Below, one piece after another: positions 773-10,538 of a stretch of 10,688 nucleotides of DNA. The first letter of the stretch is position 1; each line of letters begins with the position of its first letter. The translations under genes were made by a program, and so were the position numbers. The DNA is taken from IMG/VR virus record IMGVR_UViG_2695420822_000015. One strand, given 5' to 3'. A model generated the notes under the pieces. It saw nothing but the letters and a program-made list of their open reading frames with translations. It had not been told where the DNA came from and made no database searches. This DNA comes from a virus (taxonomy: Duplodnaviria; Heunggongvirae; Uroviricota; Caudoviricetes).

Positions 773-898
773 AGTTAAAGATTGAACCCTGCCGTCATGT
801 TCTTACGCCTCGGGCTGGCTACTTAACCCCTGACCACTGTCTGGTAACTCGAAGTATTGCCCTGCATTCTGTGGGGCGGGGTGGGTTGACGCCTGAAA

Positions 899-943
899 CA
901 ATAGCATCATTATTTTTTTTGATGTAAATAGCATCGCTATTGT
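899..943. promoter_or_regulatory. OL-like operator pair (inverted repeats AATAGC-N3-GCTATT)
   Basis: Perfect 15-bp palindrome AATAGCatcGCTATT at 927-941 and a degenerate copy AATAGCatcATTATT at 900-914, centres 27 bp apart. Same motif recurs in the cI/cro intergenic region. TTGACG at 886-891 and minus-strand TTTACA (923-928) are possible -35 elements; -10 not confidently assigned. Confidence 0.5.
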
Positions 944-956
944 TTTTTGTTGGGGC

Positions 957-981
957 AAGAAAAAACCACCCTAAGGTGGTT
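957..981 (-). terminator. Rho-independent terminator ending the repressor-antitoxin-toxin operon
   Basis: Stem 964-970 (AACCACC) pairs with 975-981 (GGTGGTT), loop CTAA. On the minus-strand transcript the hairpin is followed by UUUUCUU. Sits 17 bp downstream of the parE-like stop (998). Confidence 0.6.
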
Positions 982-997
982 CTGTCGGCGGGAATAA

Positions 998-1288
998 TTA
1001 ACTGTTTTTGCCTGGATACTGTCTTCGAGAATGCACAATATTTACTACTTCTATGCTTGATGCTGTTACTCGGTAAAGGATGATGTAGTTAGGATGAGTT
1101 ACAATTTCACGAAGACCAAGAACTCGCTCGCTTGGAGGATACAGGTAAGGATGCTCTGTGAGCGGCAAAACGGATGTTTCAATTCGAATTTTCATTCTGC
1201 GTGCTGCCGCGGGATTTTCTTTAGCTATGTAGGCTACGATCTGGCGCAAATCATCACGAGCAGATGGTAGCCATAAAACGGGTAACAT
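998..1288 (-). CDS. parE: Type II toxin, RelE/ParE superfamily (ParE-like), 96 aa
   Basis: Sequence has the ParE-like pattern (N-terminal LWLPSARDDLRQIVAYIAKENPAAARR; core ILYRV...IEVVNIVHSRRQY). ATG overlaps the antitoxin stop as TAATG at 1286-1290. Third gene of a repressor-antitoxin-toxin operon, as in the paaR-paaA-parE modules described in E. coli O157:H7 prophages. Confidence 0.85.
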   Translation of the reverse strand: MLPVLWLPSARDDLRQIVAYIAKENPAAARRMKIRIETSVLPLTEHPYLYPPSERVLGLREIVTHPNYIILYRVTASSIEVVNIVHSRRQYPGKNS

Positions 1289-1482
1289 TATTCACCTCTG
1301 TGAGTTGCAGCAGCAATTTGGGCAATAATTTGTTCCATTTCCGCCATTACCTCATCATGCGGAATCGCCGGGCGGGGATCCGCGAGGCTTGCTGCTACTT
1401 TGGCCCGCAGCCATTCGTTGTAACTATTTTCTTGCTCAACTGTCTCAAATTCTGAAACCATTGGGGAAAGGACTGTACTCAT
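1288..1482 (-). CDS. Small acidic antitoxin partner of ParE (64 aa, PaaA-like)
   Basis: 64-aa acidic protein immediately upstream of, and overlapping, the toxin gene. SD GAGGAG about 9 nt upstream of ATG (1482-1480). Position and size fit a ParD/PaaA-type antitoxin; identity inferred from context, not from a recognised motif. Confidence 0.7.
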   Translation of the reverse strand: MSTVLSPMVSEFETVEQENSYNEWLRAKVAASLADPRPAIPHDEVMAEMEQIIAQIAAATHRGE

Positions 1483-1501
1483 TTTACATATCTCCTCTGA
1501 T

Positions 1502-2032
1502 TTAGGCGCGACGGCCTTTTTGTGCAGCTAACCACCGCGCAACCGTACGATCCATTGATTCTTTTTTATCTTTCATCTCCTGAAGCATGTGTTCTTGATC
1601 TTCTTTCGGAAAAGCTCTGAACGTATGGATTAAATCTCGTTCCATCGGCTCTACGGCAAACGGTAGTTCATCCTCTGTTTGTTCTGTGTCTGCTGGTAAT
1701 GCGACTATGTTATCTTGCTGTGGTTCTCGACAATACATCCTTGCAATTTGCAGCAAATCTACCATGTCTGGCCTGATTGACTCAGGGGGAACTTTCAGTA
1801 AGCCAGCAAACTTTAGAACAGCCTCAAGGTTTAGTGGGGTTTGACCATTTAGGTAGTGACTTACCGCCCCTTGTGTTGAAAACCCCATAATTTCCGCCGC
1901 ACGTTCCTGAGTCAATCCCAACTGAGATTTCTTTGCCATCCAGATTTCTTTCAGTCTTCTGGCGGCGTTGAGGTCGGTGTCTGACAATGATTTTCTTTTC
2001 ATACATCCAATTCTAATAAGATTGCTAATCAC
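1502..2032 (-). CDS. cI-like HTH (XRE-family) repressor lacking an S24 peptidase domain (PaaR-like)
   Basis: N-terminal HTH segment LGLTQERAAEIMGFSTQGAVSHYLNGQ resembles lambda cI/XRE DNA-binding domains. No Ala-Gly/Ser...Lys autocleavage motifs seen. Track start is GTG at 2032; ATG at 2002-2000 with almost no leader or SD is the more likely start (leaderless, as for lambda cI from PRM). 19-bp gap to the antitoxin gene. Confidence 0.8.
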   Translation of the reverse strand: MISNLIRIGCMKRKSLSDTDLNAARRLKEIWMAKKSQLGLTQERAAEIMGFSTQGAVSHYLNGQTPLNLEAVLKFAGLLKVPPESIRPDMVDLLQIARMYCREPQQDNIVALPADTEQTEDELPFAVEPMERDLIHTFRAFPKEDQEHMLQEMKDKKESMDRTVARWLAAQKGRRA

Positions 2033-2086
2033 TTTGAAATAGCATCACTATTTACTTTTAAAAATAACAGTGCTATTAATTATGCA
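2033..2086. promoter_or_regulatory. OR-like divergent operator/promoter region between cI-like and cro-like genes
   Basis: Two near-palindromes of the OL motif: AATAGCatcACTATT (2038-2052) and AATAACagtGCTATT (2063-2077), centres 25 bp apart. Candidate rightward promoter TTTACT (2051-2056), 17-bp spacer, TATTAA (2074-2079). Confidence 0.6.
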
Positions 2087-2113
2087 TTGGTAACACATCA
2101 CATAGGGCGGATT

Positions 2114-2377
2114 ATGAATCTTGGAGAATATTTGCATCATTTTCATATAACCCAGAGTTCATTTGCTGAGATTGTTGGCGCATCCCAAGGGATGGTCAGC
2201 CACGTTATAACGGGGCGTGCAAAACTTACAGGAGAAAAAATATTACGTTGGTGTGAAGCAACGGGATGGGTGGTGACCCCACATGAGATTGACAGTAAAA
2301 CCTACCCCAACCCAACTGACGGCTTGCCTGCTGAGTTTCAGGCTAACACACAACCATCGGCGGGGGTTGATTCATGA
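2114..2377 (+). CDS. Cro/YdaS-like HTH transcriptional regulator (87 aa)
   Basis: Divergent from the repressor gene. Short HTH protein (FAEIVGASQGMVSHVITGRAKLTGEKILRW). Track start is TTG 2087; ATG 2114 with upstream AGGGCGG is preferred. Stop overlaps the next gene start in ATGA (2374-2377). Confidence 0.8.
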   Translation: MNLGEYLHHFHITQSSFAEIVGASQGMVSHVITGRAKLTGEKILRWCEATGWVVTPHEIDSKTYPNPTDGLPAEFQANTQPSAGVDS

Positions 2378-2799
2378 AAATCAAGCATGAACACATCCGC
2401 ATGGCGATGAAAGCCTGGGCGCATCCGGACGGTGAAAAAGTTCCGGCAGCTGAAATAACCAGGGTTTATTTCGAACTGGGAATGACGTTTCCGGTTCTGC
2501 ATAACGACAGCAAGCACAACACGCTTTATCTCAACACCCAAAAGATTTTCCGTTGGCTGGATAAAGACACCCCTGACGCTGTTGAAAAAATTCAGGCGTT
2601 GTTACCTGCGATCGAAAGGGCAATGCCACCTCCGCTGGTGGCTCGAATGCGCAGCCACAGTTCAGCTTATTTTCGGGAACTGGTGGAGACGCATGAACGA
2701 CTGGTGAGAGACGCTGATGATTTTGTCGCAGTGGCAATCGCCGGTTTCAATCAGATGAACCGTGGTGGCCCGGCAGGAAATGCTGTGGCAGTACATTGA
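2374..2799 (+). CDS. YdaT-like (cII-position) protein, 141 aa
   Basis: Translationally coupled to the cro-like gene; GGGGG SD 7 nt upstream. Size and position match Rac-type ydaS-ydaT pairs. Family assignment from recalled similarity, unverified. Confidence 0.6.
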   Translation: MKIKHEHIRMAMKAWAHPDGEKVPAAEITRVYFELGMTFPVLHNDSKHNTLYLNTQKIFRWLDKDTPDAVEKIQALLPAIERAMPPPLVARMRSHSSAYFRELVETHERLVRDADDFVAVAIAGFNQMNRGGPAGNAVAVH

Positions 2800-3941: not shown

Positions 3942-4719
3942 ATGAAAAACATTGCGGCAGCCGGGGTTCTTGAACGTATTCACAGACTTGCACCACAGGG
4001 GGCGGTTCCACCGTACCGGACGGTGGAGGAGTGGCGGGGGNNNNNNNNNNNNNNNNNNNNNNNNNNNNGAATGGCAACTTGCTGAAGGACGAAAACGCAG
4101 CGAGGAGATTAACCGCCAGAATCGCCAGTTGCGGGTGGAAAAAATCCTGAATCGTTCGGGCATCCAGCCTCTGCACAGCAAATGCTCGTTTGCGAATTAT
4201 CAGGTGCAGAACGACGGGCAAAAATACGCGCTGAGCCAGGCCAAATCCATAGCTGACGAACTGATGACCGGGTGCACGAATTTTGTGTTCAGCGGTAAAA
4301 CCGGCACCGGGAAAAATCACCTTGCAGCGGCGATGGGTAACCGGCTGATGGCGAAGGGGCGCAGCGTGATTATCGTCACCGAGTCTGATGTCATGAGCGT
4401 GTTGCATGACAGCTACGACAACGGCAAATCCGGTGAAAAATTTTTACAGGAGCTTTGTGGTGTTGACCTGCTGGTCCTGGATGAAATTGGCATGCAGCGG
4501 GATACGAAAAACGAGCAGGTGGTACTGAACCAGATTGTTGATCGCCGGACGGCATCGTTACGCGGTGTGGGGATGCTGACAAATATTAACCATGCAGCGA
4601 TGAATACACTTCTCGGCGAGCGGGTGATGGATCGCATGGTCATGAACGGCGGGCGCTGGGTGAATTTTAACTGGGAGAGCTGGCGTCCGAATGTTAGCCA
4701 TTCGAGGGTTGTTAAGTAG
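3942..4719 (+). CDS. DnaC-like helicase loader (phage replication protein, AAA+/IstB-like), interrupted by assembly gap
   Basis: Walker A FSGKTGTGKNHLAAA, Walker B DLLVLDEIG; C-terminal LGERVMDRM closely resembles E. coli DnaC. ATG 3942 (MKNIAAAGVLERIHRL...) lies 6 nt after the O-like stop. The track's TTG 3952 start is in another frame and is an artefact of the 28-N gap. Confidence 0.8.
4041..4068. other. Assembly gap (28 N) inside the dnaC-like gene
   Basis: Run of N; gap length is not a multiple of 3, so the reading frame across it is undefined. Confidence 0.95.
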
Positions 4720-4750
4720 TTTCAGGAGGATTTATGGCGAAACCTTTTAN

Positions 4751-5154
4751 ATCACTTAGCGGCAGCTATCGGGAATCGCCTGCTGAAAGACGGTCAGACA
4801 GTGATTGTGGTTACCGTGGCTGATGTTATGAGCGCCCTGCACGCCAGCTATGACGACGGGCAGTCAGGCGAAAAATTTTTGCGGGAGCTGTGCGAAGTGG
4901 ATCTGCTGGTTCTTGATGAAATTGGCATTCAGCGCGAGACGAAAAACGAGCAGGTGGTGCTGCACCAGATTGTTGATCGCCGGACAGCGTCGATGCGCAG
5001 CGTGGGGATGCTGACAAACCTGAACTATGAGGTGATGAAAACATTGCTCGGCGAGCGGGTGATGGATCGCATGGTCATGAACGGCGGGCGCTGGGTGAAT
5101 TTTAACTGGGAGAGCTGGCGTCCGAATGTTAGCCATTCGAGGGTTGTTAAGTAG
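4751..5154 (+). pseudogene. Second, 5'-truncated copy of the dnaC-like 3' region (fragment; likely chimeric join)
   Basis: Starts in-frame at ..NHLAAAIGNRLLKDGQ.. right after a single N (4750) that interrupts the start of the downstream gene (ATGGCGAAACCTTTTA, 4735-4749). Segment 4610-4749 is identical to 5045-5184. Confidence 0.6.
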
Positions 5155-5168
5155 TTTCAGGAGGATTT

Positions 5169-5353
5169 ATGGCGAAACCTTTTACTCCCGAACAGCGGGA
5201 AGAACTGAAGACGCGAATTGTGGAACTCGTGCATCAGGACGGTCGGGTCACGATTCGGCAGTTGTCAGATGAAACAGGTATCAGTCGTGCGTCTGTCGGT
5301 CGCTTATGCATAGAACTGGTCGCAAGTGGTGATGTATATAATTCTGGCTACGG
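5169..5353 (+). CDS. Hypothetical winged-helix-like protein, 5' portion only (truncated at N 5354)
   Basis: RBS AGGAGGA then ATG 5169 (MAKPFTPEQREELKTRIVELV...GISRASVGRLCIELVASGDVYNSGY). Reading frame is broken at the N junction, where sequence switches into a dnaC fragment. Confidence 0.5.
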
Positions 5354-5354
5354 N

Positions 5355-5599
5355 TCCTGGATGAAATAGGCATTCAGCGGGAGACGAAAAACGAGCAGGT
5401 GGTATTGCACCAGATAATTGATCGCCGGACAGCATCACTGTGCAGTGTCGGGATGTTAACAAACCTGAATCATGCCGCAATGAGCACGCTTCTTGGTGAG
5501 AGGATTATGGACCGCATGACCATGAACGGTTGTCGGTGGGTGACGTTTAACTGGGATAGCTGGCGTTCAAATGTCAGCTTTCCGGGAGTTGTGAAGTAA
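5355..5599 (+). pseudogene. Third, 5'-truncated dnaC-like 3' fragment (divergent allele)
   Basis: Encodes ..LDEIGIQRETKNEQVVLHQIIDRRTASLCSVGMLTNLNHAAMSTLLGERIMDRMTMNGCRWVTFNWDSWRSNVSFPGVVK*. Begins immediately after N 5354. C-terminus differs from copies 1 and 2. Confidence 0.6.
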
Positions 5600-5620
5600 T
5601 TTTTGTTGGAGGATGTTTTA

Positions 5621-6501: not shown

Positions 6502-6564
6502 NNNNNNNNNNNNNNNNNNNNNNNNNNNNNNNNNNNNNNNNNNNNNNNNNNNNNNNNNNNNNNN
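6502..6564. other. Assembly gap (63 N)
   Basis: Run of N. Confidence 0.95.
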
Positions 6565-7626: not shown

Positions 7627-9459
7627 ATGGCCCGCATGTTTGATACATTAGGATTTTACATTATGAATGTGCAACATTTTGATTTTTTTACAGATAATGA
7701 GTTTTCTAATCTGGAAAGATATCAAACTTGTAAAGCCATGGCCAAAGGTTATGCGGGCAATTACAAAACCGGGCAGTCAAGGTTGATGCATGCCCGCTCA
7801 TACTGCTTCAGCATCGTAGCTGCATATTGGGATACCCTTGCAAAAAAGCAAAAAAGCAGCATTAAAATGAGGGCAGTACCGCACACTGTTTACATAGAAG
7901 ACATTCCATGTGATGCACGCGAGCTCGCTGAACGAACAGGTGAGCTTATTGCTCAATTTCCGGCGGAGGACGCTGGATATCTGATTGGGTCAATTTATAC
8001 GGTAATGCTGCCATCCGCTTACCGTTCGGAATTGGGGGCTTACTATACCCCCCCACCTTTGGTAGCGCGTCTCTTGGACCTGGCTGAAAAGTCTGGTGTT
8101 GATTTTTCTCATGCATCGGTTATTGATCCTGCGTGTGGTGGCGGTGCATTTTTGGCACCAGTAGCCATTCGAATGTTAAAAAAAGACAAGGGGCCTTCCC
8201 CTGAATGGATGTTGAGGAGAATCAGTCGTCGTTTAAAGGGGATAGAAATCGATCCATTTGCGGCTTGGATGAGTTTGGTATTGCTCGAATCTGTACTAAT
8301 GCCACTATGTGTAAAGGTAAAACGTAGATTGCCTGAAGATACAATTATTGTTGCTGATGCGCTTCAGCAAGATAAATTTTCTGGTTATGATCTTGTGGTA
8401 GGGAATCCGCCTTACGGACGTGTCACTCTCGATATTAAAACGAGAGAAAAATATTCTCGTTCGTTATTTGGTCATGCAAATCTATATGGATTGTTCACCG
8501 ACTTAGCTGTTCGCATGGTTAAAGAGAAAACAGGAGTTATTGCATTTCTTACGCCAACTTCTTTTCTTGGTGGGCAGTATTTCACCGCGCTGCGAACCCT
8601 TTTGACCGAAAAAACTACTCCGTATGCCCTTGATTTCGTCACTGACAGGGATGGGGTCTTTGACGATGTTCTCCAGGAAACAATGTTGACAGCATTCAAG
8701 GCGGGAGAACATAAAGTTCGGGCCCAGGTATCCTCACTTGTCCCTAAGGGGTTGAACAAAGCAAAAATTGAGAAAATAGGTAATGTTGATATAGAAAAAG
8801 GTGGAGCAACGTGGCTTTTGCCACGCGTTAAAGATGATGCCTGTTTTCTTAATGTATTAAAACAGATGTCTACGCGTTTAGCTGATCTGGGATACTCAGT
8901 CTCTACAGGTCAGTTAGTCTGGAATCGATTTAAGTCGCAGTTGCGTACGACGAAAGGAAAAAATAGCTACCCATTAGTCTGGGCGGAATCAATAACTTCA
9001 GCTGGTTTTCGTTTTAGTGCAGACAGAAAAAATCATGTTCCCTATATCGATATAACCCCACAACAGGGTTTCCTTGTGACAAAATCTGAATGTGTGCTTG
9101 TTCAGCGGACAACATCGAAGGAACAGGACAGAAGGATTTTAGCGGCAATTTTACCTCAGGGATTTATAGATGAAACTGGTGGCGTAGTAGTTGAAAACCA
9201 TATTAATATTGTATATTCAAACGGATTGTTCTCTGCGGTTCGCCCTGATGTTATTGATATGCTACTTAATTCGCATGTTGTCGATCGGGCGTTCAGGTGT
9301 ATAAGCGGAAGTGTTGCTGTTTCGGCCTATGAATTGAATTCAATCCCGTTGCCTTCTCTGGAGCAGGTGATGGAGATTCAATCGTTAATTGATGCTGGCG
9401 TCCACAGACGGATTATTGAGAGAACTATCGCTGGTTTCTATGGAGTGATGATTGCATGA
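7627..9459 (+). CDS. N6-adenine DNA methyltransferase, gamma class (Eco57I/TaqI-like motif order)
   Basis: Motif X GAYYTPPPLVARLLDL, motif I IDPACGGGAFL (SAM binding), motif IV VVGNPPYG, in the order X-I-IV. About 130-aa N-terminal extension and about 280-aa C-terminal region (presumed target recognition). AT-rich codon usage. Start could be ATG 7627, 7636 or 7663. Confidence 0.85.
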   Translation: MARMFDTLGFYIMNVQHFDFFTDNEFSNLERYQTCKAMAKGYAGNYKTGQSRLMHARSYCFSIVAAYWDTLAKKQKSSIKMRAVPHTVYIEDIPCDARELAERTGELIAQFPAEDAGYLIGSIYTVMLPSAYRSELGAYYTPPPLVARLLDLAEKSGVDFSHASVIDPACGGGAFLAPVAIRMLKKDKGPSPEWMLRRISRRLKGIEIDPFAAWMSLVLLESVLMPLCVKVKRRLPEDTIIVADALQQDKFSGYDLVVGNPPYGRVTLDIKTREKYSRSLFGHANLYGLFTDLAVRMVKEKTGVIAFLTPTSFLGGQYFTALRTLLTEKTTPYALDFVTDRDGVFDDVLQETMLTAFKAGEHKVRAQVSSLVPKGLNKAKIEKIGNVDIEKGGATWLLPRVKDDACFLNVLKQMSTRLADLGYSVSTGQLVWNRFKSQLRTTKGKNSYPLVWAESITSAGFRFSADRKNHVPYIDITPQQGFLVTKSECVLVQRTTSKEQDRRILAAILPQGFIDETGGVVVENHINIVYSNGLFSAVRPDVIDMLLNSHVVDRAFRCISGSVAVSAYELNSIPLPSLEQVMEIQSLIDAGVHRRIIERTIAGFYGVMIA

Positions 9460-10538
9460 ATCTGCCTGTTGTTCCCCCATTGAATGTTATCCGGGAAAGA
9501 TTACAATTAATTTTCCCTGAAGGGACTGAGAATCGTGGATATTTAATTCGGGAAATAGCTGCAAAAACAATTTTTGTCATGTTTTATGCTGGTGCGGTTG
9601 AGGGGCTGGGGCGATGGATAAGGCCCAGCCAGGTTGTAAGTATGGGAGATTCGCAGGCTGCTCTTACTGATGATGCGTCCAGAGAAAGCTGGGTAAAGAT
9701 GACTTTCTCTAAACAAAAGATAAGGCCTGCTGATGCATGGTATGCGGAAAATACGCGTGAGCCAATACGTGATGAAACTATAAAAAATGGCCTAATACCT
9801 TGCAATGCAATTGTTGAGCGTAAAGGTATACCCACCACATCCTCTCGTCCTCGTTACAGTTTGAATCGCTCTTTTGCAGCACTCTTTGATGCCGGGCTTG
9901 AAGGAGATTCGCTGCTGAGTGCAATAAGTTCCTGGCAAGAAAATCATTTGAACAAAGCCGCTCTTGCTAGGTTGCGTTTATTGAAATCAGGGGCAGTGAT
10001 TGCTGCTGATGCCGTAGTCGTCACTTTCCCAAATGGAGAGAAGAGAACTTTAGCTCCGGGCCCGTCAAGTACAATAGCTAAGGCCGTCATCGAAGTTTTT
10101 GCTCCTAATTTTCTTAAGAATCCAACTGTGCTCTGGTTGTCTGAATCCGGGAATAAAGTTGTTGCTCAGGATGATGTATTGGCAAAAGCATTGGGGCTGA
10201 ATATTGATGCCTCAAAAGCACTTCCAGATATTATTTTGATTGATTTGGGAGAGGACCGAACGGGTTCGGACATGCTTGTAGTTTTCACTGAAGTAGTTGC
10301 GACAGATGGGCCTATAAACAGGGAACGAAAAGTTACTCTCACTCATTTGGCTATTGACGCTGGGTTCAGCGAGAAAAATCTTGCATTCCTTACGGCATTT
10401 ATGGACAGAAGTGCTCTGCCTTTTAAAAAGGCAATACCAGAATTGGCGTGGGGATCTTATGCATGGTTTGCTTCTGAACCGGAGCACTTAATTGATCTTC
10501 GGGATGGTTATCCGGTAAAGATCAGCCAGAGAAAATGA
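9456..10538 (+). CDS. MTase-coupled partner protein (360 aa); putative restriction endonuclease or other effector, family unassigned
   Basis: ATG overlaps the MTase stop (ATGA 9456-9459); GGAG about 10 nt upstream. Same AT-rich composition as the MTase. No Walker motif, HNH or clear PD-(D/E)xK triad identified by eye; candidate acidic cluster IDLGED...FTEVV. Confidence 0.55.
   Translation: MNLPVVPPLNVIRERLQLIFPEGTENRGYLIREIAAKTIFVMFYAGAVEGLGRWIRPSQVVSMGDSQAALTDDASRESWVKMTFSKQKIRPADAWYAENTREPIRDETIKNGLIPCNAIVERKGIPTTSSRPRYSLNRSFAALFDAGLEGDSLLSAISSWQENHLNKAALARLRLLKSGAVIAADAVVVTFPNGEKRTLAPGPSSTIAKAVIEVFAPNFLKNPTVLWLSESGNKVVAQDDVLAKALGLNIDASKALPDIILIDLGEDRTGSDMLVVFTEVVATDGPINRERKVTLTHLAIDAGFSEKNLAFLTAFMDRSALPFKKAIPELAWGSYAWFASEPEHLIDLRDGYPVKISQRK

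Follow-up and report, generated by a model that had tools for sequence, protein, structure and literature searches.

The window, a stretch of 10,688 nucleotides from a virus of the Caudoviricetes, contains what we consider very probably to be the immunity region of an E. coli/Shigella lambdoid prophage, in which a single repressor would control both the prophage switch and a toxin-antitoxin (TA) pair; this degree of confidence covers the whole explanation, including the mechanism proposed below. The locus belongs to an already characterised kind, the paaR-paaA-parE three-gene TA operon, and is a new immunity type of this known system, because only the lambda-cI-type DNA-binding domain and its own operators differ.

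Results and Discussion

Gene order and boundaries of the operon

Three genes lie on the minus strand in the order HTH regulator, PaaA-type antitoxin and ParE toxin, and are followed by a terminator:

1502..2002, minus strand: repressor, 166 aa; lambda-cI-type N-terminal domain (NTD), linker and PaaR/DicA-type C-terminal hairpin
1288..1482, minus strand: PaaA-type antitoxin, 64 aa, pI 4.55; Pfam PaaA2 3e-23, PDB PaaA2 (3zbe) 1.4e-23
998..1288, minus strand: ParE-family toxin, 96 aa, pI 9.9; Pfam ParE_toxin 1.8e-17, PDB ParE2 (5cw7, matching residues 1-93) 6.7e-37
959..986, minus strand: intrinsic terminator behind the three-gene operon, with the stem GAACCACC..GGUGGUUU and a U-run after it (inverted repeat I11)

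All features that a sequence-only reading had listed for a three-gene operon are present on this strand. The regulator is separated from the antitoxin ATG (1482) by a 19-nt gap that contains a Shine-Dalgarno (SD) sequence, GAGGAG, and the antitoxin stop and the parE start overlap as TAATG at 1286-1290. The minus-strand RNA of 940-1000 forms a GC-rich stem of 9 bp, with UUUUUUCUU behind it (-15.1 kcal/mol, z = -2.7; 3 of 200 shuffles fold equally well), and this terminator is kept in the related loci L001 and L003. Though shown by folding, it is absent from the list produced by a simple consensus promoter/terminator scan; the three weak terminator-like sites that the scan did return were treated as chance. 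Homology of the toxin and the antitoxin bears out the earlier assignment to the paaR-paaA-parE architecture, as do the order and spacing of the genes and the terminator with regard to the operon. Co-transcription of the three genes and their repression by the regulator would be consistent with this anatomy, namely the 19-nt gap, the overlap, the single terminator and operators lying over the upstream promoter.

The extent given in that reading, 998-2032, has a right end that lies 30 nt beyond the regulator coding sequence, because the regulator is likely to start at ATG 2002 and not at an upstream GTG. The maximal ORF (1502-2032) does begin at that GTG, which gives 176 aa, and the database has a 178-aa 'partial' protein (P0001). 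We rejected the GTG-2032 start because an operator-like site (OR3, below) and the -10 element of a promoter lie within bases 2003-2032 and would become coding, and because RefSeq annotates 166 aa. The RefSeq coding sequence in the closest E. coli locus, to which the stretch 900-2400 is 99.2% identical, has 501 nt, the same length as the regulator gene starting at ATG 2002.

Toxin and antitoxin

The calls of a small acidic antitoxin and a ParE-family toxin are both confirmed. Aligned to PaaA2 and ParE2, the antitoxin is 75% and the toxin 63-67% identical, while the corresponding values for the second O157:H7 copy (L002, presumably PaaA1 and ParE1) are 77% and 86%. Toxicity, neutralisation and the protease-lability of the antitoxin are known for ParE2/PaaA2 (PMC8630535). 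At 63-86% identity to characterised proteins, the ParE encoded here would be expected to be toxic and the PaaA to neutralise it.

Pfam, NCBIfam and PDB searches returned the PaaA2 toxin-binding region as the only domain of the 64-aa antitoxin and no DNA-binding domain. The TA complex is for this reason not expected to autoregulate the operon, and control would be delegated to a third protein. A canonical two-gene ParDE system was rejected, as the antitoxin has neither a ribbon-helix-helix (RHH) nor another DNA-binding domain.

Domain architecture of the regulator

In a structural model the regulator consists of a five-helix NTD (residues ~1-91), a disordered linker (92-118) and a C-terminal helical hairpin (119-164). 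The NTD matched that of lambda cI (1lmb/1rio) with a phmmer E-value of 2.5e-9, and Foldseek placed the model on 1lmb/3kz3 with probability 1.00, a target-normalised TM score of 0.85-0.93, an rmsd of 1-2 Å and 34-40% identity. Acidic residues at the positions of lambda E34/D38 are kept in the alignment (QERAAE versus QESVAD). Judged by its sequence and modelled fold, the domain that binds DNA is a homologue of the lambda cI NTD. In agreement with the earlier description of a cI-like HTH regulator without an autocleavage domain, Pfam gave HTH_3 only and no Peptidase_S24, and the model shows just a 45-residue hairpin after the disordered linker. Without an S24 domain the protein is best described as a cI-NTD fusion and not as a full member of the cI family.

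The identification of this regulator as PaaR applies to one of its ends. The C-terminal 44 residues are 52% identical to PaaR2 and the C-terminal 64 residues 56% identical to PaaR1 (L002), whereas the DNA-binding NTD has no sequence homology to that of PaaR; in the PDB search, the PaaR2 NTD structures 7nkv/8c3k were found with PaaR2 as the query and not with this regulator. The C-terminus also matches positions 74-130 of the 135 in DicA (NCBIfam, E = 8.8e-8), a match that is confined to the C-terminal part and, at 32 bits, lies below the NCBIfam cut-off of 101. PaaR2 octamerises (PMC8630535), and it is from these octamers that we infer an oligomerisation role for the hairpin, because the PDB holds the PaaR2 NTD only (7nkv, 8c3k, 8c3l) and no structure of the shared C-terminal part. 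Other details of PaaR2, such as its four inverted repeats and low-dose activation, are not simply transferable because the DNA-binding domains are unrelated in sequence.

Operators and promoters

Predicted operators of the type AATAGnnnnnCTATT lie in the 111 bp between the regulator and cro genes, and recur immediately beyond the terminator. A scan of the whole 10.7 kb with AATAGCATCRCTATT, allowing up to 3 mismatches, gave 6 strand-matches at only four places (900-914, 927-941, 2038-2052 and 2063-2077), where 0.53 would be expected by chance; none of 200 shuffles reached 6. The operators and candidate promoters are:

2015..2077: OR-like operator set; OR1 2063-2077 AATAACAGTGCTATT, OR2 2038-2052 AATAGCATCACTATT, weak OR3 2015-2029 AATAAGATTGCTAAT
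900..941: OL-like operator pair just beyond the operon terminator; 900-914 AATAGCATCATTATT, 927-941 AATAGCATCGCTATT
2010..2038, minus strand: PRM-like promoter candidate; TTCAAA (2038-2033), 17 nt, TAGAAT (2015-2010)
2051..2079, plus strand: PR-like promoter candidate, tentative; TTTACT, 17 nt, TGcTATTAA (extended -10), overlapping OR2 and OR1
928..898, minus strand: candidate leftward PL, tentative, read by eye; TTTACA (928-923), TGcTATTGT (906-898)

The OR sites are spaced by 25 and 23 bp. The centre of OR2 lies ~42-43 bp from the predicted PRM start, and OR3, a poor operator match with 4 mismatches, lies inside PRM. A three-site OR layout with spacings of 25 and 23/24 bp is present in nine other loci (L001, L003 and L007-L013), across which the operator type co-varies with the repressor NTD. 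The OL pair lies downstream of the cargo in every compared locus with the same repressor NTD (listed: L003, L007-L013), and the AATAG-N5-CTATT layout is absent from the PaaR1 and PaaR2 loci. Operator half-sites are kept in an 80%-identical relative, in which the centres vary. These observations uphold the view that the regulator occupies the cI position, divergent from a cro-like gene and flanked by matching OR- and OL-like operators.

Because the consensus scan performed at chance level for promoters (3 found, 3.3 expected), the promoters were assigned by position and conservation only, and an internal minus-strand site at 1915-1887 that the scan reported was treated as chance. The PR candidate was read by eye; unflagged by the scan, it is conserved in L001 and L003. 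From the PL candidate, ydfA and the genes that follow it would be transcribed; the spacer of this candidate measures 19 nt in the window and 17 nt in L001, the closest relative. The -10 element of the PRM candidate ends 7 nt before ATG 2002, which has no SD upstream. This position of the -10 element predicts a leaderless repressor mRNA, by analogy with cI and paaR2 (PMC8630535).

The cro-ydaT side

Opposite to the repressor operon run two genes, with a predicted activator site at their junction:

2114..2377, plus strand: Cro-like (YdaS-position) HTH regulator, 87 aa; Pfam HTH_3 4.9e-4, phrog_35 transcriptional repressor 8e-17
2374..2799, plus strand: YdaT, CII-like activator, 141 aa; Pfam YdaT_toxin 5e-9, phrog_163 CII-like activator 3e-40
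2367..2384: perfect predicted YdaT (CII-analogue) site TTGATTCATGAAAATCAA at the cro/ydaT junction

The Cro-like protein is 36% and YdaT 81% identical to the respective protein of L002. TTGATTN6AATCAA matched once, with 0 matches expected from 200 shuffles; both the definition of this site and its position correspond to OM/PRE of CP-933P at the cro/ydaT junction (PMC9986795). In structure YdaT, an HTH protein of the POU type, bears no relation to CII (PMC9986795). The Pfam name 'YdaT_toxin' and weak NCBIfam HigA matches could be read as a second TA pair formed by cro and ydaT, which we rejected because YdaS and YdaT have been shown to be non-toxic analogues of Cro and CII (PMC8630535).

Relatives and exchange of the immunity core

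Comparison of the window with L002 gave alignments at 575-1629 (76%) and 2303-2797 (81%) and nothing between. The homologous flanks thus enclose a swapped segment of ~670 bp, with one boundary in the repressor gene and the other in cro:

1630..2302: immunity core swapped relative to the O157 CP-933M-type locus; repressor NTD, OR and the DNA-binding part of cro

The same arrangement occurs in ~72 complete E. coli genomes, with ~80% DNA identity over the module. In the closest complete genome (L001) the module is surrounded by a full lambdoid prophage with integrase, exonuclease, dicB, replication genes, Q (frameshifted), lysis genes and terminase, and no other repressor candidate is annotated in this prophage. 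A megablast of 900-2400 against a phage genome collection gave only 32-39-bp matches, located at the start of ydaT, and among the sequenced free phages of that collection none has the module. One further locus has an IS91-family element between paaA2 and parE2, which are thereby separated.

Relatives of the repressor with the same NTD and operators occupy the cI position opposite cro and YdaT, with or without TA cargo, and other cargo found in the slot of related prophages comprises HigBA and HipA_2 with DUF3037 (HipA-like). From this occurrence with or without a TA pair we conclude that the protein is primarily a prophage repressor. It might instead be a dedicated TA regulator, that is, the split-off DNA-binding module of an antitoxin, with immunity provided by another protein. 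PaaA has no DNA-binding domain, and three-component TA systems do divide DNA binding and antitoxin function between separate polypeptides (PMC3141249). However, the gene is divergent from cro and ydaT, its operators overlap both directions and recur at OL, its close relatives hold the same position without TA or with unrelated cargo, the L001 prophage has no other annotated repressor, and PaaR2 was shown to repress ydaST primarily (PMC8630535). A dedicated TA regulator is on these grounds highly unlikely.

The cassette could also be a decayed remnant in a defective prophage that no longer works as a TA pair. CP-933P is a cryptic prophage in which steady-state ParE2 activity went undetected (PMC8630535), Q is frameshifted in the closest complete prophage, and the IS91-family insertion mentioned above separates antitoxin from toxin in one locus. 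Here, however, both ORFs are intact and of full length, SD, overlap and terminator have all been kept, the products are 75-86% identical to proteins with published toxicity and neutralisation, and the module, conserved at the level given above among the ~72 genomes, is undisrupted in the loci inspected. We regard decay as very improbable and retain a working TA pair under the control of a prophage repressor as the preferred reading.

Proposed mechanism

We propose that the repressor gene is co-transcribed with the PaaA-ParE pair, which would sit in the slot of lambda rexA-rexB. The lambda-cI-like NTD would bind 15-17-bp palindromes of the form AATAG-N5-CTATT, and the short C-terminal helical domain, common to PaaR1, PaaR2 and DicA, would oligomerise the repressor. 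OR1, OR2 and the weak OR3 are predicted to overlap two promoters, the rightward one of cro-ydaT and the leftward one of the repressor gene, with the second pair of sites (OL) 1.1 kb away, beyond the operon terminator. Occupancy of these operators would silence cro/ydaT and the leftward early genes, while the repressor operon would stay on, probably via a leaderless PRM-type transcript from which the ParE toxin, a stable protein, and the acidic antitoxin, a labile one, would also be made. Since a DNA-binding domain is missing from PaaA, the prophage switch alone would determine whether the TA pair is transcribed. The Cro-like protein may compete for the same operators, and YdaT, bound to TTGATTN6AATCAA, may open a second, PRE-like route into the operon. 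As a RecA-cleavable domain is missing from the repressor, any induction would proceed otherwise than by LexA-type autocleavage. What is observed here comprises the genes present, their homologies, the domain architecture, the places of the operators and the co-variation of operators with the NTD; it is homology to CP-933P and lambda that leads us to expect binding, co-transcription, the leaderless start, toxicity and addiction.

The most plausible role of the TA pair is that of an addiction module, which would put a penalty on losing the immunity region. Alternatively, it may serve mainly as phage-exclusion (abortive-infection) cargo that replaces RexAB. It occupies the rexAB slot (PMC9986795), and the alternation of HigBA and HipA_2 with DUF3037 in this slot is a pattern typical of defence/moron hotspots. 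Against this, plasmid stabilisation through post-segregational killing is the one phenotype for which the homologous locus has been tested (PMC8630535), and we consider exclusion a rather unlikely main role. This alternative concerns the role of the pair only and is compatible with the regulatory mechanism proposed here.

Wider implications

A broader reading may be offered, which is tentative and, with its parts taken jointly, somewhat doubtful. It supposes an SOS-independent repressor family with interchangeable HTH NTDs and a common PaaR/DicA C-terminal hairpin, in which the space between the repressor gene and OL is a dedicated, PRM-transcribed cargo slot and the ParE cassette a recombination anchor. 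The slot would be filled by differing toxin modules (PaaA-ParE, HigBA or HipA-like), and the cassette would have outlived repeated swaps of the immunity core because recombinants that lost it were killed. Going further still, one might suppose that induction signals or toxin status reach the switch through the shared C-terminal domain and not through RecA.

No single regulator is bound up with the paaA-parE cassette: at least three DNA-binding specificities occur among the repressors that precede this TA pair. The locus is also a further example of a repressor-adjacent slot that holds prophage toxin or defence cargo. The regulator has, unlike PaaR2, a bona fide lambda cI NTD and could for this reason be a convenient test system for which features of the CP-933P switch carry over; candidates are bistability, PRM activation and OL-OR looping via the small C-terminal domain. 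The significance is modest and current understanding is unchanged.

Comparison with known systems

Like the ParD-ParE systems of RK2 and Vibrio cholerae (parDE2), the locus encodes a ParE-fold toxin with a small acidic protein immediately upstream. In those systems an RHH DNA-binding domain of the antitoxin autoregulates the operon, whereas the antitoxin here has none. DicA of the Qin cryptic prophage of E. coli K-12 occupies the same cI-equivalent position, next to ydfA-ydfB-ydfC-dicB, and the closest prophage has the same left-arm genes as Qin. DicA matches the regulator in the C-terminal domain but has a different N-terminal HTH, and no TA pair is known to follow dicA in the Qin map.

The OR/OL layout of lambda, the position of its OR2 and the co-transcription of rexA-rexB as cargo with cI are well established. 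The present locus resembles lambda in its homologous repressor NTD, including the basic N-terminal arm and the acidic E34/D38 positions, in three OR sites with 23-25-bp spacing and an OR2 centred at ~-42 from the predicted PRM start, in an OL set ~1.1 kb away, and in non-essential cargo behind the repressor gene. It differs in that the S24 autocleavage/dimerisation domain of lambda cI is replaced by a 45-residue PaaR/DicA-type helical hairpin, RexAB by a type II TA pair, and CII by its analogue YdaT.

The closest TA pair is that of L002, the second O157:H7 copy (at 1.25 Mb of ATCC 43894), with 86% identity for ParE and 77% for PaaA. By elimination, as the non-ParE2 copy, L002 would correspond to paaR1-paaA1-parE1 of CP-933M. 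It shares the left flank (ydfA/DUF1391) with our locus, whereas the ~670-bp core has no DNA similarity to window positions 1630-2302 and its intergenic region has no AATAG-N5-CTATT.

The paaR2-paaA2-parE2 operon of the cryptic prophage CP-933P/Sp12 of E. coli O157:H7, reportedly described by Hallez in 2010, agrees with the present locus in the order and orientation of its genes and in their divergence from a cro-like gene (ydaS) and a CII-like gene (ydaT). CP-933P likewise has operators at OR and beyond the TA genes (OL/PL), a predicted leaderless repressor start, no S24 domain and a YdaT site TTGATTN6AATCAA at the cro/ydaT junction. The differences lie in the length of the regulator (166 aa here versus 123 aa for PaaR2) with NTDs of no detectable sequence similarity, in the operators (AATAG-N5-CTATT here versus GTTTAGTAA repeats in CP-933P), in two strong and one weak OR site here versus four inverted repeats there, and in Cro-like proteins that are unrelated at the BLAST level. 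In the published PaaR2/YdaS/YdaT model, an OL/PL site already lies past the TA genes, the repressor has a leaderless mRNA and no SOS-cleavable domain, and ydaST is the primary target of PaaR2 (PMC8630535). A regulator shared between prophage repression and toxin control, as the sequence-only reading had suggested, is supported here by the cI position and the OR/OL operators; the idea itself is not new, since control of prophage and toxin by one regulator was shown experimentally for paaR2-paaA2-parE2 of CP-933P (Jurenas 2021, PMC8630535).

Anatomy of the operon and identity of the toxin and antitoxin

ORF calling recovered three genes in series on the minus strand at 998-2032. All particulars of the operon that the sequence-only reading had described (the gene calls, the 19-nt gap, the TAATG overlap and the terminator fold) were recovered, except that its right end had been set 30 nt too far. 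The mechanical regulator ORF opens at GTG 2032; we placed the start at ATG 2002, giving a protein of 166 aa, because the regulator CDS of the closest E. coli locus (L001) is 501 nt in the RefSeq annotation and because promoter and operator elements lie within 2003-2032. TAATG joins the antitoxin stop to the toxin start, and 3' of the toxin stop a 9-bp GC-rich RNA hairpin is followed by a U-run (-15.1 kcal/mol, z = -2.7 in RNA folding). The divergent cro-like gene of the earlier reading was found as an HTH gene.

Features of the operon and its surroundings
Regulator/antitoxin spacer, minus: 19 nt, contains GAGGAG
1288-1482, minus: antitoxin, 64 aa, acidic, pI 4.55
998-1288, minus: toxin, 96 aa, basic, pI 9.9
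2114-2377, plus: cro-like HTH gene
2374-2799, plus: ydaT
2367-2384: predicted YdaT site at the cro-like/ydaT junction, perfect match to TTGATTN6AATCAA (0 expected by chance)
2038-2052 and 2063-2077: predicted operators, regulator/cro intergenic region
2015-2029: weaker third predicted operator, 23 bp from the second site
900-914 and 927-941: predicted operators just past the terminator

The antitoxin hits Pfam PaaA2 at 3e-23 and the PaaA2 structure from E. coli O157 at 1.4e-23; the toxin hits Pfam ParE_toxin at 1.8e-17 and solved ParE2 at 6.7e-37. Protein identities were calculated against both O157:H7 loci. Identity to the PDB sequence singled out the ParE2 locus, whose regulator also begins with MQKKE, the N-terminus that was determined for PaaR2 (PMC8630535). 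The second copy maps to 1.25 Mb of ATCC 43894 and was assigned by elimination to the CP-933M homologue paaR1-paaA1-parE1 that the literature mentions. ParE of the window is 86% identical to this second copy and 63-67% to ParE2, and PaaA is 77% identical to the second copy and 75% to PaaA2. At 75-77% and 63-86% identity to the O157:H7 proteins, the paaA-parE assignment made earlier stands.

A putative domain-swapped repressor

Alignments show the regulator to be a mosaic, domain-swapped repressor. Its alignment to PaaR1 is restricted to the last 64 residues (56% identity) and that to PaaR2 to the last 44 (52% identity), so that the likeness to the PaaR proteins is confined to the C-terminal 44-64 residues; the remainder does not align and its N-terminus is lambda-cI-like. 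This C-terminal part also matches DicA, at the C-terminus of that protein. Over its first 90 residues the regulator is truly homologous to the N-terminal domain of lambda cI: phmmer matched the structures 1lmb/1rio at 2.5e-9, and the alignment, which opens at the basic arm of the N-terminus, retains acidic residues where lambda has E34 and D38. The AlphaFold model (mean pLDDT 79, about 90 in the C-terminal hairpin core and through most of the N-terminal domain) consists of five helices, a disordered linker (92-118) and a two-helix hairpin (119-164). In Foldseek its N-terminal domain superposes on structures of lambda cI (target-normalised TM 0.85-0.93, rmsd 1-2 A, 34-40% identity). A PaaR2 query recovered the solved N-terminal domain of PaaR2 (7nkv, 8c3k); a query with the window regulator did not. 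Neither the Pfam search nor the model contained an S24 peptidase domain, in agreement with the proposal that the regulator lacks an autocleavage domain.

Predicted operators and promoters

Allowing up to 3 mismatches, AATAGCATCRCTATT was found at just four places in the whole 10.7-kb window, as 6 strand-matches where 0.53 would be expected; 0 shuffles reach 6. These are the pairs at 2038-2052 and 2063-2077 (OR) and at 900-914 and 927-941 (OL), which bear out the matching operators proposed to flank the operon. In the 80%-identical relative L003 the half-sites AATAG/CTATT are conserved and the five central bases differ. The loci with a cI-like domain (L001, L003 and the further repressor relatives L007-L013) all have three intergenic sites at spacings of 25 and 23-24 bp, each with an extra pair past whatever is downstream of the repressor gene; no such sites were found in the regulator/cro intergenic regions of the PaaR1 and PaaR2 loci. 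Operator type goes with the type of repressor N-terminal domain.

A candidate leftward promoter, TTCAAA-17-TAGAAT, ends 7 nt ahead of the ATG. Since the -10 lies this close to the ATG and no SD precedes it, the regulator mRNA is predicted to be leaderless. The middle operator would then lie about 42-43 bp 5' of the predicted start, in the geometry established for lambda OR2. Leaderless mRNAs have been shown for cI and paaR2 (PMC8630535).

The OL operators are 27 bp apart (900-941), compared with 25 bp in L001 (10001-10040), in L003 (3001-3040) and in OR, and the T-run between them has 8 T in the window and 6 T in L001. The longer gap is either a homopolymer error of the draft assembly or a real change stretching the PL spacer to 19 nt. 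Downstream of OL on the minus strand lie ydfA (DUF1391, 566-772) and a 125-aa ORF (189-566) with no Pfam family and a strong match to phrog_33007 (function not known); these two genes (189-772) would be the first on a PL-type transcript.

Exchange of the immunity core and the cargo slot

At the DNA level, the window resembles the second O157 locus (L002) over 575-1629, taking in ydfA, both toxin-antitoxin genes and the final ~42 codons of the regulator gene, and again from 2303, at the cro end and ydaT, with no similarity to that locus at 1630-2302. The exchanged piece is precisely the specificity core, namely OR together with the DNA-binding parts of the repressor and of cro, and so follows the classical pattern of lambdoid immunity swaps.

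Repressor relatives of 244-255 aa (P0013-P0023; L007-L011) combine a cI-like HTH, a PaaR1-like HTH and the common C-terminal hairpin, and the 166-aa regulator looks like this form without the second HTH. Every relative inspected faces a cro-like gene, with cro and YdaT in all except the Salmonella locus.

Cargo downstream of the repressor relatives
L007-L009 (L007 4518-4793): nothing or a 91-aa ORF
L010/L011 (L010 4287-5860): HipA_2 and DUF3037
L012/L013 (Salmonella; 4112-4839): HigB and an HTH antitoxin

Because the relatives face cro genes while the downstream cargo differs, the regulator is in the first place a prophage repressor. Its toxin-antitoxin pair is one among several alternative cargoes in a rexAB-equivalent slot, and the interval from the repressor gene to OL acts like a variable slot for toxin or defence cargo.

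Other layouts were seen at ParE2-type loci. L005 (2977-4288) and L006 (1455-2766) have four genes with two regulators in series, a 123-aa PaaR2-like gene and then a 153-aa PaaR1-like gene before paaA-parE. In one E. coli assembly (L004, 917-3216), an IS91-family transposase (Y2_Tnp) and a 121-aa ORF lie between paaA2 and parE2, and the first codons of parE2 are replaced; this toxin gene appears disrupted and parted from its antitoxin.

Prophage context and distribution

In the closest complete genome, E. coli FDAARGOS_944, the module lies within a lambdoid prophage at tRNA-Ser, with integrase, exonuclease, dicB and ydfABC to its left and replication genes, a frameshifted Q, lysis genes and terminase to its right. 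Of 5,426 complete E. coli genomes, 72 contain at least 80% of 900-2400 (99% identity in two of the 72); some paaA-parE-like cassette occurs in 842 genomes. The best protein matches of the regulator carry the label Shigella sonnei. The module is already widely distributed among the sequenced genomes of E. coli and Shigella.

A type II restriction-modification pair within the prophage is a second defence-type cargo of the same element.

Restriction-modification pair (7627-10538, plus)
7627-9459, plus: methyltransferase, Eco57I/N6_Mtase family, 610 aa
9456-10538, plus: endonuclease, BsuBI/PstI family, 360 aa, overlapping the methyltransferase gene

The window has four N-runs, at 4041-4068 (28 bases), 4750 (1), 5354 (1) and 6502-6564 (63). 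A dnaC/IstB-like 3' end restarts after each single N (repeats 4366-4749, 4801-5184 and 5355-5602; 87% and 80% identity to the first copy), with DUF977/DUF1627 genes next. The repeats look like scaffold joints of paralogous prophage replication-module contigs rather than a real tandem array, and have no bearing on the operon finding.

Comparison with CP-933P

The suggestion that one regulator serves both prophage and toxin is already the published CP-933P model, since Jurenas et al. 2021 (PMC8630535) showed this behaviour for the O157:H7 prophage. There, PaaR2 acts as a CI analogue, is made from a leaderless mRNA, lacks an autocleavage motif and, as the authors stress, has no sequence similarity to CI; footprints of PaaR2 and YdaS extend over the 97-bp intergenic region and the two proteins repress both promoters, a PL/OL-like site lies past the TA genes, a PRE-like promoter is activated by YdaT, and the locus is bistable and addictive (PMC8630535). 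The YdaT site was defined by Prolic-Kalinsek et al. 2023 (PMC9986795), and the high-affinity site OM of CP-933P occupies exactly the same position as the site at 2367-2384. From homology and anatomy, binding, co-transcription, a leaderless start, toxicity and addiction would be expected of the window operon as well. The feature is real, was correctly read and is ordinary. It differs from CP-933P in the truly cI-like N-terminal domain of its regulator, in operator sequence and number and in its cro-like protein, and adds one more hetero-immune member to the paaR-paaA-parE / lambdoid immunity-region family.
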